In this document: positions 2,318 to 35,796 of the stretch, piece after piece | Position numbering within the stretch: position 1 is the first letter of the stretch | Layout of the letters: each line of letters begins with the position of its first letter | Assembly: GCA_023245335.1 (NCBI GenBank) | Contig: JAHFKK010000001.1 | Span: forward strand, 299,282 to 363,281 | DNA from: Candidatus Gottesmanbacteria bacterium | GTDB lineage: Bacteria; Patescibacteriota; Microgenomatia; UBA10105; UBA927 | Length of the DNA stretch: 64,000 bases | Direction: 5' to 3' | Notes under the pieces: generated by a model | Database searches by the model: none | What the model was told of the DNA's origin: nothing | The model's input: the letters and a program-made list of their open reading frames with translations, nothing else | Translations under genes and position numbers: made by a program

Positions 2318-4534
2318 TCATTTTACGATCGCCGGTTTTTCCTGGGGATGCTGGCAGTCCAGGCACCAGTTGGTTATGCTGTCCGATATGACCTGGTGTT
2401 GTTGCATTTCTACATTATCCGTTTGACCGGGGCTTGCAAGATCATTGGTTGTTTTATCGATAGCCACAGTCTGGGTGAGATTTTCCCTCGTGGTAGGGAC
2501 GGTGCCTTTCGTAAAGTATTCAAACCGAGTCGGGCACCCTTTATCACCTGCGTTAGGATCGGGATTCGGCGGAAGGAGCCCCGTCGTCGTACAGATTTGG
2601 GCTCCCACGACGCTATCCGGCTGTTTCGGCCAGATATCCGGTTGGCCGAAAAGTGCGTGTTGCATAAGTTTATTCCAGATAGGAGCCGCTCCCGTAATAC
2701 CGGAAACTAAGTAGCTATTCATCGGATGGTTATCGTTGTTGCCGACCCAGGTGGCGATGAGGAATTGTGGCGTGTAGCCAATGGTCCAGTTGTCACGGAT
2801 ATCATTGGTGGTACCGGTTTTGACTGATACGGCATGGCCAGGGATGACAAGAGCTGAATTGGGGCCGAATTCATCCTGACGGGCGTTGTTGTCGAGAAGT
2901 ATGTGAGAAATAAGAAACGATGTTTCGGGAGATACCACACGGACTCCTGTTTGCAGAAGCTGCGACGGGATGACCTTGCCGAGGTTCGGATCCTTGTATT
3001 GTTGGAGTACCTTGCCGTCTTTGTCGACCACTTTAAGTATTGATACGAGATCGTGTCTCGTGCCGCCGTTGGCAAATACGGAAAATGCCGTCGCCATATC
3101 AGTCATGTGGACTTCGCCGCCTCCCAATGTGAGCGACAGTCCGTAGTGTGTCGGGTCTTTTAACGTGTTTAAACCGAAGGCGGAAGCAGAAGCTACCATA
3201 TCCTGTACGGTGTTGAGGTAGAGCATTTTGACGGCAGGGATATTCAAAGAATTACCCAATGCAAACCGTAATTGTACCGGACCGTGGAATTTCCCGTCAT
3301 AGTTTCTCGGGCAGTATGCAGGCTGGCCGGCAAGATTGGCAAAACATGTGGGTTCATCCAGAAACATCGTTGCAGGCGTGACGATGCGTTTTTCTAGTCC
3401 TATGCTGTAGTTAATCGGTTTGATGGAAGACCCCGGTTGGCGAAGGGCAGTCGTGACATTAAACGATCCTGATGGTGTCGCGAAATAGTCCGTAGACCCC
3501 ACCATGGCGAGTATTTCACCAGTTGAGGGATGGGTGATAAGCGCCGCTCCGTTGGATACGTCAACGGTTTTGAGCTTTGCGACTTCCGCGGCGACGGTTG
3601 CCTGCGCATAGTTTTGCAGATCAAGATCGAGAGTCGTTGTCACTTTAAGTCCGCCCCGTTCTACCAGAGCTTCGCCGTATGTATTTTCAAGCTGGTCCTT
3701 CACGTACATGACGAAATGAGGAGCCTGGATGCCGGTTTCCGGCTTATAGACCAGTGGTTCCGCAAAGGCATCGTCTGCCTGTTTTTGGGTGATGTAGTGG
3801 TCGTCGACCATACGGGTGAGCACTTCTTTTTGGCGCTGTTTTGCATATTCGGGATGGGCCCCATAAGGCGAATACAGCGTCGGGGCCTGCGGCAATCCGA
3901 CCAGAAGAGCGGCTTCGGCGAGACTGACTTGTTTAATGGGTATGCCGAAATATTTTTCTGATGCGGTTTCTATGCCCCACGCGGTCCCGCCGTACGGCAC
4001 GGAATTGAGGTACATTTCCAGAATTTTATCTTTGGAATACAGGAGTTCAACAAGAGGTGCGAGCATAAGCTCCTTCACTTTCCGCGTGATAGTGCGTTCC
4101 GGAGTCAGAAGCGCGGATTTGACGAGCTGTTGGGTGATAGTCGAACCACCCTGGAGTTTGCGGCTGACAACCGATGCCGCAATCGCGCGAAGCAGGCCCC
4201 CGATGGGGTTTATCGCACCGTGTTGATAGAAGTTTTTGTCTTCGATGGATATCGTACCCTGTTGGACGTATTTGGGCATATCGGACAGGGGAACAGGAGT
4301 ACGATTTTGGCCGACGAAGATGTCGAAAAGGAGTTTACCGTTCCGGTCGTATATTTTTGTCGCTACCGGAATATCGTACCTTCCTAAATTCGCGGGAGAC
4401 GGAAGATCCCGTAGGATAAACCAGTAGAATGCGGCGAGCATCAGAAACGGTATGCACCAAAAGATGTATGGTTTCCATGATGACGGAATGCGTGGAAGCG
4501 GCAGTTTGCCAAACGATAGTCTAGGAAAGGACAT
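2318..4534 (-). CDS. Class A penicillin-binding protein 1A (transglycosylase/transpeptidase)
   Basis: 738 aa with an N-terminal TM, EDKNFYQHGAI and QGGSTITQQL (GT51 motifs) and a transpeptidase domain. TATAAT lies 6 nt upstream of the ATG (leaderless-like). Confidence 0.9.
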   Translation of the reverse strand: MSFPRLSFGKLPLPRIPSSWKPYIFWCIPFLMLAAFYWFILRDLPSPANLGRYDIPVATKIYDRNGKLLFDIFVGQNRTPVPLSDMPKYVQQGTISIEDKNFYQHGAINPIGGLLRAIAASVVSRKLQGGSTITQQLVKSALLTPERTITRKVKELMLAPLVELLYSKDKILEMYLNSVPYGGTAWGIETASEKYFGIPIKQVSLAEAALLVGLPQAPTLYSPYGAHPEYAKQRQKEVLTRMVDDHYITQKQADDAFAEPLVYKPETGIQAPHFVMYVKDQLENTYGEALVERGGLKVTTTLDLDLQNYAQATVAAEVAKLKTVDVSNGAALITHPSTGEILAMVGSTDYFATPSGSFNVTTALRQPGSSIKPINYSIGLEKRIVTPATMFLDEPTCFANLAGQPAYCPRNYDGKFHGPVQLRFALGNSLNIPAVKMLYLNTVQDMVASASAFGLNTLKDPTHYGLSLTLGGGEVHMTDMATAFSVFANGGTRHDLVSILKVVDKDGKVLQQYKDPNLGKVIPSQLLQTGVRVVSPETSFLISHILLDNNARQDEFGPNSALVIPGHAVSVKTGTTNDIRDNWTIGYTPQFLIATWVGNNDNHPMNSYLVSGITGAAPIWNKLMQHALFGQPDIWPKQPDSVVGAQICTTTGLLPPNPDPNAGDKGCPTRFEYFTKGTVPTTRENLTQTVAIDKTTNDLASPGQTDNVEMQQHQVISDSITNWCLDCQHPQEKPAIVK

Positions 4535-24576: not shown

Positions 24577-24648
24577 GGGCGCGTAGCTCAGTGGTAGAGC
24601 GCTACTCTTATAAAGTAGATGTCCTTGGTCCGATCCCAAGCGCGCCCA
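24577..24648 (+). tRNA. tRNA with anticodon TAT (UAU), putative tRNA-Ile reading AUA; unusual T-loop (TCCGATC, C at position 55)
   Basis: Hand-folded cloverleaf: acceptor GGGCGCG/CGCGCCC, D arm GCTC-AGTGGTA-GAGC, anticodon stem CTACT/AGTAG with loop CTTATAA, T arm CTTGG-TCCGATC-CCAAG, discriminator A. CCA is not encoded. Confidence 0.6.
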
Positions 24649-31198: not shown

Positions 31199-31495
31199 AT
31201 GGCAAAGCAAAAGATTGTGCCGTTATTTGATAATGTCCTCGTGAAGCCCCTTGAGGCAGAAACAAAACTTCCCTCAGGATTAGTACTCCCTGATACCGCC
31301 AAAGAAAAACCCCAGATCGGAGAAGTCATGGCTGTCGGTCCTGGTGGGACAGACGACAAAGGAAACGTCGTCAAGGTGGTCGTGAAGGTCGGACAGAAGG
31401 TGATGTACAAAAAATGGGGAGGCAATGAAGTAAAAGTAGAAGGTGCTGAATGGACGATCGTCGAACAAAAAGACATATTAGCAATTGTTGAATAA
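31199..31495 (+). CDS. groES: Co-chaperonin GroES
   Basis: 98 aa with AAGGAGG SD. Confidence 0.95.
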   Translation: MAKQKIVPLFDNVLVKPLEAETKLPSGLVLPDTAKEKPQIGEVMAVGPGGTDDKGNVVKVVVKVGQKVMYKKWGGNEVKVEGAEWTIVEQKDILAIVE

Positions 31496-31500
31496 TATAA

Positions 31501-33168
<1,668 letters not shown>

Positions 33169-33240: not shown

Positions 33241-33266
33241 GTCCCGCGAAAGCGGGACTTTTGGTA
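33241..33266 (+). terminator. Rho-independent terminator after groEL (GTCCCGC-GAAA-GCGGGAC + TTTTGG)
   Basis: Perfect 7-bp stem with a GAAA tetraloop and a T-tract. Confidence 0.8.
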
Positions 33267-33288
33267 TATATGCTATACTTCACATGCT

Positions 33289-33495
33289 ATGACAGTGGCT
33301 AAATGGAAAAAACTTTCACAAAAATACCCAAATAAATGGGTCGCTCTCAATGAAAAGACAGGGCAGGTTGTTGGTGTGGGGAAAACGCCGAAAACCGCGT
33401 ACGAGCAATCACAAAAGAAAGGGATTTCCGTCCCGCTTATTACGAAGGTGCCGAAGGAATATGGCTCTTACATCCTTACTACGGTTGGCATATAA
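33289..33495 (+). CDS. Small protein (68 aa), DUF5678-like (KWVAL...GQVVGVGKT...GISVPLITKVP)
   Basis: Internal ATG of track ORF 33202-33495. TATACT -10-like element just upstream. AT-rich segment. Confidence 0.45.
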   Translation: MTVAKWKKLSQKYPNKWVALNEKTGQVVGVGKTPKTAYEQSQKKGISVPLITKVPKEYGSYILTTVGI

Positions 33496-33904
33496 GACGT
33501 TTCCCGCTTCACCCATTGAGCCATTTCCCAATAGAAGTACGGTATCCAGGCCAGTTATTGATGTGCTATTACGTTGGAACGGAAAATCTATTAAATACAG
33601 TGCCATCGTTGATTCCGGAGCGGATTATTGTGTTTTCCATGCGGAAGTGGGTGAGCTTCTTGGTTTGTCAGTTAAAAAAGGCAAGAAGCTCACGTTTTAC
33701 GGCACGAGTGGTTCACCTCAAAACGCCTATTTCCATACAATACAGATAGAAATTGCGGGTTGGCCAATGGATCTCTACTGCGGGTTTAGTTATGATATGC
33801 AGACACTGCCGTATGGGTTGCTCGGGCAAACAGGATTTTTTGATCGGTTTAAGGTTGAATTTGACTATCATAATAAACGGCTTGAACTTAAACCAAAACG
33901 ATAA
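33461..33904 (+). CDS. Retropepsin-like (clan AA) aspartic protease
   Basis: Active-site SAIVDSGADYCVF and a C-terminal GLLGQTGFFDRFKVEFDYHNKRLEL tail typical of bacterial clan-AA proteases. It overlaps the preceding small gene by about 35 nt in another frame. Confidence 0.6.
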   Translation: MALTSLLRLAYKTFPASPIEPFPNRSTVSRPVIDVLLRWNGKSIKYSAIVDSGADYCVFHAEVGELLGLSVKKGKKLTFYGTSGSPQNAYFHTIQIEIAGWPMDLYCGFSYDMQTLPYGLLGQTGFFDRFKVEFDYHNKRLELKPKR

Positions 33905-33959: not shown

Positions 33960-35144
33960 ATGAAGATTGACTCAAAAATTATCCGTATTATCGGGACGTT
34001 TATAATTATTGAATTCTGTTTGCAGCTCGTTACTTTCGGCCGATATGCCTGGGGTCAATATTCACAGAAACAGGCAGAGAACGATATCGTTGCCCGCACG
34101 TGGGCACTCCGGGATCCCACATTTCGGGCGGTATTTAACGAAGAGTCAAACGTTTGGGAAGAGTATTACCCTTTCGTCGGCTGGCGGACGCGGGAGATGC
34201 ACACGCCGCACATAAACGTCAGCGCGGACGGGATTCGTACAACCGTTGGTAATTCTGCGACAGTAGCCGGCTTGCCGACCATCTACTTTTTGGGAGGATC
34301 CGCGATGTGGGGGGAGGGGCTTACGGATGACACGACGATTCCGTCGCTTGTCGTAAAGCAACTTAACTCGCAATCCCCGGCTGCAGCGGTCTTTAATTAC
34401 GGAGAGATCGGGTATGTCAGCACACAGGAGGTTCTCCGTCTCGCACTGCTTCTCAAGTCCGGCAAACGGCCGGATCACGTGATTTTCTACGACGGATGCA
34501 ATGATTTTTTCGTTTCCGCTCTGGATTCGCGCGTGCACGAGACGTATCGCGACGACCGCATGAAGTCAGTACTGGGAAACATTTGGGCGCTGCCGGATGA
34601 TAGCGAGACGGTGCGTACTCACGACAACACAACGATATTCAGTACCGGGTTTTGGCAGCAGGTATTTTCTGCGGCTATAAAATATATACAGATTATCCGC
34701 TATCCTATGGAGATCTATAACACGCTACATCATGATGCAATTTCAGCGAAGCCGCAGGGATCAGTCAGTGATGCCGGGAAAACAGAGGCGATAGCAAACA
34801 ATTATGTAGAAAATATCCGATTAGTAGACGCGCTGTCACAAACCTATCATTTCGATTATCTTTTATTTTGGCAGCCCACGGTATATTCCTATGATCTGAC
34901 GCCGGAGGAGCGCAACTTGCCGGGCATTCATCCTGACCGATATACACAATTTTCTCGAATGTATCATGACGCGGCACAAATAATCGGACAGAAACTCGGC
35001 GGTAAATTCATAGACCTTTCCCGTATATACGAAGGGACGAAAGGTCCGATATTTACCGATTCCTGTCACGTGACGGTTGAGGGAAACAGGACGGTAAGTG
35101 AGAGAATCGCAAAGGAATTACAGTCAGCATGGGGATTCAGATAA
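33960..35144 (+). CDS. Membrane-anchored SGNH/GDSL-type hydrolase-like protein
   Basis: N-terminal TM, YFLGGSAMWGEG, FYDGCNDF (GxND block) and C-terminal DSCH (Asp..His). Confidence 0.55.
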   Translation: MKIDSKIIRIIGTFIIIEFCLQLVTFGRYAWGQYSQKQAENDIVARTWALRDPTFRAVFNEESNVWEEYYPFVGWRTREMHTPHINVSADGIRTTVGNSATVAGLPTIYFLGGSAMWGEGLTDDTTIPSLVVKQLNSQSPAAAVFNYGEIGYVSTQEVLRLALLLKSGKRPDHVIFYDGCNDFFVSALDSRVHETYRDDRMKSVLGNIWALPDDSETVRTHDNTTIFSTGFWQQVFSAAIKYIQIIRYPMEIYNTLHHDAISAKPQGSVSDAGKTEAIANNYVENIRLVDALSQTYHFDYLLFWQPTVYSYDLTPEERNLPGIHPDRYTQFSRMYHDAAQIIGQKLGGKFIDLSRIYEGTKGPIFTDSCHVTVEGNRTVSERIAKELQSAWGFR

Positions 35145-35163
35145 GTTTGTTATACTAGCTCAT

Positions 35164-35796
35164 ATGCCGGATGATCATGTCAAAAAAACGATTGCCGCGT
35201 ATGATGAAATCGCAGAAGAGTATATAGCGAAAATTCAGAAATACGCACCAAAGATGGAGCGGGAACGGTTCGCTTCTATGGTAAAGCCGGGAGGGAAAAT
35301 ATTAGATGCCGGGTGCGGTTCGGGTCGGGATTCGTGGTATCTCTCGGAACGTGGATTTACTGTTGTCGGGATAGATTTGTCCGACAGATTGCTGGACTAT
35401 GCAGATAGATATACAACCGCTTCCTGTTCGTTCCAAAAAATGGATTTACGGAAGATAAGCTTTACAGACGGAAGTTTTGACGGTATTTGGGCTTGTGCGT
35501 CTCTCCTGCACCTCACGCGGGAAGAGATTGTGCCGGTAATAAAAAGACTGTATGAAGTGCTTGTTTCCGGCGGAGTATTATTTCTTCTCATGAAAGAGGG
35601 GAAAGGCGAAAAATACCTTACCAACGAGAAATTCCGCGGCGACACCCGTTTTTTTACCTGGTATACGCAGGATGAGATCCGTTCACTTCTTGGGACTGTC
35701 GAATTTTCCGTATTGGATATGTTTACGTGGGATCAGAAAAACCGCAATGCCGAACGCCCGCATGAGATATGGATTTCTACGTTTGCTAAGAAATAA
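35164..35796 (+). CDS. Class I SAM-dependent methyltransferase
   Basis: Motif I ILDAGCGSGRDS. Internal ATG at 35164. Confidence 0.75.
   Translation: MPDDHVKKTIAAYDEIAEEYIAKIQKYAPKMERERFASMVKPGGKILDAGCGSGRDSWYLSERGFTVVGIDLSDRLLDYADRYTTASCSFQKMDLRKISFTDGSFDGIWACASLLHLTREEIVPVIKRLYEVLVSGGVLFLLMKEGKGEKYLTNEKFRGDTRFFTWYTQDEIRSLLGTVEFSVLDMFTWDQKNRNAERPHEIWISTFAKK

Follow-up and report, generated by a model that had tools for sequence, protein, structure and literature searches.

The single-domain clan AA peptidases of prokaryotes have been grouped as the pSNCAPs of COG3577 and COG5550 (PMC2642776). Retropepsin-like enzymes described from bacteria include RimB, which acts within RimABK (PMC11957791), APRc of Rickettsia (PMC4140852) and the Rlo peptidases of Pseudomonas aeruginosa, which are reported as secreted (PMC12239564). 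The A2-type peptidases known from bacteria act with further protein factors (PMC11957791), and no dedicated small upstream partner for RimB, APRc or Rlo is described in the literature searched. The subject here is a two-gene element at positions 33289–33904 of a 64,000-nucleotide stretch of a Candidatus Gottesmanbacteria genome (contig JAHFKK010000001.1), the whole of which is called the window, in which a small gene of the DUF5678 family precedes the gene for a retropepsin-like protease and runs into it out of frame.

The main finding is that proteases of this kind are consistently accompanied by the small gene. One genome per species was scanned for the GLLGQTGFF stretch of the protease, which gave at least 514 relatives, and the neighbourhood and pairing counts that follow were made on the 80 best of these loci. 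A DUF5678-like open reading frame (ORF), detected with an iterated hidden Markov model built from the small protein of the window, lies directly upstream and on the same strand in all 78 loci with upstream DNA; the remaining 2 of the 80 end at a contig edge. The converse holds for both of the small proteins sampled from long contigs (2/2), where the protease comes next with a 4-nt overlap. A linkage found in 78 of 78 loci is not due to chance, and the pairing is obligate in these loci, the two genes always being adjacent and in the same order. The 80 loci belong mostly to Patescibacteria, or the candidate phyla radiation (CPR), the closest named organism being Candidatus Gottesmanbacteria, with a minority from Chloroflexota/Dehalococcoidia, Acidobacteriota, Omnitrophota and Actinomycetota. 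An earlier note on this DNA, made from the letters alone, had stated that such pairs recur in bacteria and archaea; the bacterial part of that statement stands, whereas no archaeon occurs among the 80 best loci, beyond which no further search was made. The pairing appears to be undescribed, being absent from the literature searched though both families are already in Pfam.

Some loci depart from the simple arrangement. The Patescibacteria contig L080 carries two pairs about 3 kb apart (374–996 and 3747–4399), and the second of its proteases is without the DSGA[DS] motif yet retains the D[ST]GA core. An extra DUF5678-like gene of 64 aa, with a weak Pfam match, converges on the pair in L091 (3163–3357, minus strand) and likewise in L092; it has no protease of its own and follows an 83-aa ORF for which Pfam gives no match. 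No orphan protease was seen among the loci, as against this orphan DUF5678 copy in L091. A distant relative on a viral contig, L086 (protease at 3998–4525), has no same-strand DUF5678 ORF upstream, but a DUF5678-like motif (SWVYVSDDGKIVAVGTS) occurs in an ORF of the opposite strand (3803–4063, minus strand), which extends over the start of the protease gene.

With the single-domain clan AA peptidases of PF13650 the protease shares a size of about 120–150 aa, the D-[ST]-G-A and hydrophobic-hydrophobic-Gly motifs and a predicted retropepsin fold, and it differs from that family at large in an N-terminal extension, the GLLGQxGFF stretch and the DUF5678 gene that always lies upstream. RimK and RimA, the partners of RimB, are not present with the pair. 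The same layout, a small gene and then a protease, is seen in PDC-M52 and PDC-M08, candidate phage-defence cassettes that consist of a first gene and a B protein of about 120–140 aa (bioRxiv 10.1101/2024.01.29.577857), and that were proposed as defence systems solely on account of their place inside known ones (BREX, DISARM, restriction–modification and Hma loci). The B proteins are homologous to the protease described here: with PADLOC, matches to PDC-M52B were obtained for 18 of 29 family proteases (best 8.4e-8) and matches to PDC-M08B for 14 of the 29, the window protease itself showing weak similarity to PDC-M52B over almost its full length (E=1.3e-4). In contrast, the A proteins show no relationship with DUF5678, with 1 of 67 members matching at E=0.008 and over 17 residues only, and the DUF5678 loci are without the defence context in which the cassettes sit. 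With its A component unmatched, the pair is not a member of either PDC-M52 or PDC-M08. The association of homologous proteases with unrelated first proteins implies that the layout, with a small gene first and a retropepsin-like protease second, recurs with interchangeable partners, which resembles the mix-and-match seen among toxin–antitoxin families.

The two proteins and their gene junction

The pair lies downstream of groESL, and the features of the locus are given below.

groES: 31199–31495, GC 45.5%
groEL: 31513–33168, GC 53.7%
Intrinsic-terminator-like hairpin: 33241–33264, plus strand, GTCCCGC-GAAA-GCGGGAC (33241–33258) and then TTTTGG, from direct reading
Extended -10-like element TGcTATACT: 33271–33279, plus strand (TG 33271–33272, TATACT 33274–33279), 9 nt 5' of the small-ORF ATG (33289)
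Small ORF, 68 aa, DUF5678: 33289–33495, plus strand, from the ORF list and Pfam
Protease ORF, 147 aa, retropepsin-like (clan AA): 33461–33904, plus strand, ATG at 33461 and stop at 33904, with Pfam match
Out-of-frame gene overlap, 35 nt: 33461–33495, plus strand, from the ORF coordinates
Catalytic motif D51-S-G-A-D55 of the protease: 33611–33625, plus strand, from codons and homologue alignment
G119-L-L-G-Q-T-G-F-F127, comprising the hydrophobic-hydrophobic-Gly motif of clan AA and a family-specific FF: 33815–33841, plus strand, from homologue alignment

The same two genes, of 68 and 147 aa and with the same overlap, are found in independent public gene calls on identical DNA. The outline drawn in the earlier note is borne out, namely a TATACT -10-like element before a 68-aa DUF5678-like gene that overlaps, by about 35 nt and out of frame, the gene of a retropepsin-like protease with a VDSGAD active site. 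Of the profile models that the note had put forward for checking, PF18929 and PF13650 are passed; PF13975, TIGR03698 and TIGR02281 are not.

The small protein scores 39.1 bits with PF18929 (DUF5678), for which the cutoff is 23.2 (E=6.6e-10), its residues 8–57 covering positions 1–49 of the 49-residue model, and it contains the stretches KWVAL, GQVVGVGKT and GISVPLITKVP. A profile search with the small proteins yields 1664 sequences, almost all 62–70 aa long, and relatives of the small protein are named ‘DUF5678 domain-containing protein’ by NCBI. It is basic (pI 10.0), as is the family in general (median pI 9.7, median net charge +5). Conserved positions include W17, P49, P55 and Y61, the last two belonging to a conserved tail, P55-x5-Y61-[IV]-[LG], and many orthologues terminate directly after Y-I-L. 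An AlphaFold2 (AF2) model based on 47 sequences, with a predicted local distance difference test score (pLDDT) of 82.7, has an alpha-beta-beta-alpha-beta order followed by a short helix (helix 3–12, strands 17–20 and 27–31, helix 34–43, strand 50–53, short helix 59–62). The C-terminus is its least confident part, the final block having a pLDDT of 49. Searches against PHROGs gave nothing significant, the best values being E=0.065 for the small protein and 0.017 for a protease homologue designated P0084, with no protease match.

The protease passes PF13650 (Asp_protease_2; 29.7 bits, cutoff 24.3), residues 37–123 aligning with positions 3–88 of the 90-residue model. It remains below the cutoffs of PF13975 (23.0 against 28.2) and PF00077 (14.0 against 20.7) and far below those of the NCBIfam models TIGR03698 (clan_AA_DTGF; 19.7 against 57.35 bits) and TIGR02281 (clan_AA_DTGA; 13.9 against 57.95). 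It contains VDSGAD and GLLGQTGFFDRFKVEFDYHNKRLEL, and both hallmarks of clan AA are present, the D-[ST]-G-A motif as D51-S-G-A-D55 and the hydrophobic-hydrophobic-Gly motif as L120-L121-G122. Its homologues (n=135) are mostly of 140–150 aa. Across 29 aligned proteases D51-S-G-A-D55, G81, G108-F109, L121-G122 and F126-F127 are invariant (29/29), with G119 and Q123 nearly so, and the subfamily is marked by a conserved N-terminal extension of about 30–50 residues (Y11...R30-P31) together with the GLLGQxGFF signature.

A profile of the family matches the feline and human immunodeficiency virus (FIV and HIV) proteases, Ddi1 and Rickettsia APRc in the PDB. An AF2 model of P0084, which is 50% identical to the window protease, has a pLDDT of 85–98 in its protease part and in Foldseek matches the RVP domain of Ddi1, the HIV-1 protease, the equine infectious anaemia virus (EIAV) protease and APRc, with a probability of 1.0 and target-normalised TM-scores of about 0.6–0.7. 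A retropepsin fold is thus predicted for the family, as modelled on this homologue. Neither the small protein nor the protease has a hydrophobic segment, which sets the protease apart from APRc, an enzyme described as membrane-embedded; the Rlo enzymes are secreted. The protease is therefore predicted to be soluble and single-domain, and to be catalytically intact as judged by its motifs. Within clan AA a single-domain retropepsin contributes one catalytic Asp, so that a homodimer would be required for activity.

In the window the protease frame is +1 relative to the small ORF, and the protease ATG is formed within the Tyr-Gly codons (TAT GGC) of the small-protein tail. In the 80 pairs the two genes overlap by at most 35 nt or stand at most 17 nt apart.

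ATGA or GTGA, 4-nt overlap: 36 pairs
1-nt overlap: 6 pairs
Direct abutment: 5–6 pairs
Gap of 2–17 nt: 20 pairs
Overlap of 11 or 17 nt: 3 pairs
Overlap of 29–35 nt: 8 pairs, the window and L001–L007 only
No identified start codon: 1 pair, L045

The last of these, L045, reads ATATAA at 3960–3975 where its relatives carry ATGA, leaving the protease without a canonical start codon at the expected site. Junctions of these kinds are typical of translational coupling, which is accordingly the arrangement predicted for the pair. The earlier note had asked whether the out-of-frame overlap is conserved in other genomes. The long form (35, 32 or 29 nt) is kept in all eight members of the window clade, that is, in the window and L001–L007, and is found nowhere else among the 80 pairs, where the commonest junction is ATGA. 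Within the clade one of two codon pairs in the small-protein tail, TAT-GGN (Tyr-Gly) or TAT-GCT (Tyr-Ala), gives rise to the protease ATG, and in L001, L006 and L007 this ATG is the sole start candidate. The long overlap is thus a clade-specific variant of ordinary coupling with no part in recoding: a coupling junction probably drifted into an overlap of 29–35 nt because TAT-GGN, which encodes the conserved Tyr-Gly, supplies a +1-frame ATG.

The retroviral gag-pro arrangement invites another explanation, since there too a retropepsin ORF starts out of frame inside the preceding one. A programmed frameshift or read-through at the overlap would then give a DUF5678–protease fusion. The protease frame is open from 33350, 5' of its ATG, 12 loci have both ORFs in one frame with a single stop codon between them, and one database protein, P0084, resembled such a fusion. 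However, the frame relation between the two ORFs is inconstant (51 / 16 / 12 loci), no conserved slippery site was found at the overlap, and the ATG start is kept across the overlap clade; the pair is thus unlike gag-pro in having no frameshift signal, its own conserved ATG, variable frames and no fusion products.

P0084 (L081:409–1026) was rejected as a natural fusion, its DNA holding an in-frame TAG, after ...YGAFVL, that the gene caller read as Gln. The call looks like an artefact of alternative-genetic-code gene calling on a 1.3-kb contig, and gene calls of this sort might be a source of spurious fusions in other cases. When P0084, with both halves together, was the query of an exhaustive HMMER search, 1205 representative clusters were returned, among the best 150 of which there was no two-domain protein. 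Frame variation, the artefactual nature of P0084 and the lack of a two-domain match together indicate that the two products are always separate polypeptides. Recoding of this kind is extremely improbable, and we regard it as effectively refuted and, for practical purposes, excluded.

Genomic setting and age of the pair

The hairpin at 33241–33264 that follows groEL is the upstream boundary of the module; its palindrome (33241–33258) was reported by the terminator scan on the minus strand. Between the hairpin and the small ORF lies the TATACT at 33274–33279, for which a sigma-70 consensus scan found no -35 element, and because this is absent the scan left the site uncalled. The position of TGcTATACT may nevertheless point to a leaderless or near-leaderless transcript of the small ORF. 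TATACT-N7/8-ATG also occurs 5' of the methyltransferase gene further downstream (ATG 35164; 35145–35166) and in L093 (4700–4725). A TATACT placed 7–9 nt from the ATG at these window sites and in L093 suggests that leaderless or near-leaderless transcripts may be a habit of the lineage. No structured RNA was found at the module, the sole Rfam match in the window being a tRNA at 24577–24648. The C-terminus of the preceding GroEL is coded by three 9-nt GGM repeats (33123–33158).

Between the pair and the methyltransferase gene is a 394-aa ORF (33960–35144) with weak similarity to GDSL lipases, at 30.0 bits below the PF13472 cutoff of 32.9. It had no tblastn match in the compared relatives, whether pair-bearing or pair-less, and so appears to belong to the same variable region 3' of groEL.

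No third gene is conserved among the neighbours of the best loci. Ribosomal protein L5, GroEL, GNAT and ABC are the most frequent families in the neighbouring genes (75 upstream, 76 downstream), and the only signs of a defence context are 2 MazE and 2 PD-(D/E)XK matches. Two contexts recur, groEL upstream in the window clade and the spc ribosomal-protein operon in 6–7 Parcubacteria loci. The latter is seen in L038 (2222–6677) and also in L040, L043, L045, L047, L050 and similar loci, with L5 upstream in 6 of them. In L038 the pair sits between rplE and rpsN, in the order S17-L14-L24-L5-[pair]-S14-S8-L6-L18, and is accompanied by a 149-aa ORF.

At the groEL site the pair is variably present. 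It follows groEL in all of L001–L006 (GroEL 83–86% identical to that of the window) and, in total, in seven related species-level genomes, which implies that it is old at this site. The protease is 64–79% identical to that of the window in the related groEL-site genomes and 59% identical in L007. Three of these genomes, L001, L003 and L005, are labelled ‘uncultured Gammaproteobacteria’; their GroEL proteins are 85–86% identical to that of the window and their gene order is that of Candidatus Gottesmanbacteria, and the labels are probably wrong. In contrast, L093 and L094 (GroEL 88%) and L095 (82%) keep both window flanks with the pair missing and groEL directly before the downstream flank. In L093 a homologous hairpin and TTTTGGTATACT follow groEL, and N8-ATG then leads straight into the methyltransferase gene. 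A metagenome scan for the closest GroEL genes, which gave 80 loci of 59–88% identity, found the pair within 3 kb in none of them (0/80). The lack of the pair in equally close relatives implies that it is dispensable, and presence and absence among such relatives place both the module and the GDSL-like gene in a variable spot. The module is thus accessory and patchily distributed.

The earlier note had reported a GC drop after a groEL terminator, from about 50% to about 42%, and had suggested horizontal acquisition from this shift. The terminator-like hairpin is there and the dip is genuine yet modest, the module having a GC content of 43.2% where the window as a whole averages 49.6% (sd 2.9, same-length windows), which places it at the 3rd percentile; the downstream methyltransferase gene (44.9%), like groES, is near the module value. 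A foreign island newly inserted by horizontal transfer would account for this low GC, for the lack of the pair in the closest relatives and for the patchy phyletic spread over CPR, Chloroflexota, Acidobacteriota and Omnitrophota. It is an improbable explanation, as is that of a spurious small ORF with which it may be grouped. The pair stands after groEL in the seven related genomes with protease identities that fit vertical descent, no convincing direct or inverted repeats flank it, and neither an integrase nor a transposase adjoins it. The distribution is most simply explained by a pair that was ancestral in the clade and was later lost in some members, so that of the earlier suggestion the accessory nature holds up, whereas acquisition by transfer is only weakly supported and a recent arrival improbable. 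As for a spurious small ORF, alongside which the protease would be found alone at homologous loci, the opposite was observed: the small ORF scores above its Pfam cutoff and accompanies the protease in 78 of 78 loci, and for practical purposes this possibility is excluded.

Possible roles of the small protein

On the sequence evidence the pair is a real, autonomous and conserved two-gene unit, with junctions of the kind seen in translational coupling. Whether the two products meet was approached with an AF2 model of P0084 treated as a pseudo-fusion, in which the domains are joined by a natural three-residue linker and the protease N-terminal extension. The alignment was a block unpaired one, sound except in the first ~20 residues of that extension, and thus holds no inter-domain covariation. 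The model has a predicted template modelling score (pTM) of 0.80 and high pLDDT in both domains, only residues 61–80 being poor, with pLDDT and pTM the sole measures used. The pTM implies that the small domain is confidently placed against the protease, and the model is suggestive of a direct complex between the DUF5678 protein and the protease.

The reading tentatively preferred here is that the pair is a guarded protease resembling a toxin–antitoxin module, with the small protein as an antitoxin-like inhibitor. The two proteins would form a complex in which the small protein, translated first from the common mRNA, holds the protease in an inactive or restricted state by binding to it. It could act as an antitoxin-like guard or as a pseudo-substrate inhibitor, probably by way of the tail P-x5-Y-[IV]-[LG]. 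Should the partner be lost or displaced, as under stress, translation arrest or perhaps infection, the freed protease dimer would cleave cellular targets. This reading is favoured because of the gene order, the lack of fusions, the dispensability of the module, the occurrence of an orphan small gene without an orphan protease and the mix-and-match of partners seen with PADLOC. The architecture of a type II toxin–antitoxin system, two small, co-directional and tightly coupled genes in an autonomous unit, is found here, and the likeness extends to a small upstream gene coupled to an enzyme, to dispensability and patchiness and to the orphan small gene. We know of no aspartic-protease toxin. That DUF5678 and its retropepsin form the first toxin–antitoxin-like or abortive-infection-like module with an aspartic protease as effector, restrained by a pseudo-substrate, widespread in the ultra-small genomes of CPR bacteria and linked through its protease to PDC-M52 and PDC-M08, is a further proposal that we consider rather unlikely as a whole.

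Several observations count against a guarded protease. The pair departs from type II toxin–antitoxin modules in having no recognised antitoxin DNA-binding fold, with no Pfam, PDB or fold match of the small protein to a domain of ribbon–helix–helix, helix–turn–helix, AbrB or Phd type; it is present as a single copy in the window; its position is stable, as its retention after groEL in seven genomes illustrates; and its neighbours are mostly housekeeping genes (groEL, ribosomal proteins, tRNA synthetases, EF-G) and not defence genes, one Parcubacteria group carrying it within the spc operon itself. Among 2.9 million viral contigs just 3 loci were found. For the small protein there is no Foldseek match in the PDB with E<1 and no significant PDB sequence-profile match, and in the literature searched the sole paper to mention DUF5678 concerns other matters. 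Moreover, RimB activates or is activated by its partners and is not inhibited by them (PMC11957791), a precedent by which an activating cofactor may be nearly as plausible as an antitoxin-like inhibitor.

Under such a scheme the DUF5678 protein would be an obligate cofactor or adaptor, an activating or substrate-delivering subunit involved in folding, dimerisation or target recognition, and the complex would process a specific substrate. The strict 1:1 linkage and the coupling of the genes are in keeping with this, as are the confident docking in the pseudo-fusion model, the housekeeping neighbourhoods that include groESL and the spc operon, the long-term stability at the groEL site and the example of RimB within RimABK. 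The usually basic character of the small protein would also fit, since it could then bind RNA, ribosomes or acidic targets. Against it, the closest relatives do without the module, no gene for a candidate substrate is conserved nearby, the homologous proteases of the PADLOC cassettes pair with unrelated small partners, and no fusions occur among the best 150 of the 1205 representatives, which would be unusual for an obligate subunit. A cofactor role is the main rival to the guarded protease, and somewhat less probable.

The conserved tail also allows the small protein to be seen as the substrate of the protease, for example as a pro-protein whose C-terminus is trimmed to release an effector or signal. 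Retropepsins prefer aromatic or hydrophobic residues at P1/P1', which the tail motif Y-[IV]-[LG] resembles, and the tail is of low confidence in the model of the small protein. Yet the residues that follow the motif are few and unconserved, and many lineages end at ...YIL-stop, which would leave nothing to be released; nor is there an export signal, or a modification enzyme nearby. A substrate role is correspondingly a slim prospect.

Whichever of these roles applies, the main significance lies in the obligate linkage of DUF5678 to a retropepsin-like protease across hundreds of mostly CPR genomes, the 35-nt overlap of the window being a local peculiarity. Both families are already catalogued, and the pair is a solid lead and not a discovery. 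Characterised retropepsin-like proteases from bacteria are very few, and this subfamily was never seen without a DUF5678 gene in loci with upstream DNA; for DUF5678 itself, the linkage to a retropepsin is the first functional anchor. The system is also compact, at about 620 bp. If the guarded-protease reading is true, it would bring a new enzyme class to toxin–antitoxin and defence-like modules together with a natural protein inhibitor of a retropepsin, and if the small protein is instead a cofactor, the pair would represent a partner-dependent proteolytic switch in CPR bacteria.

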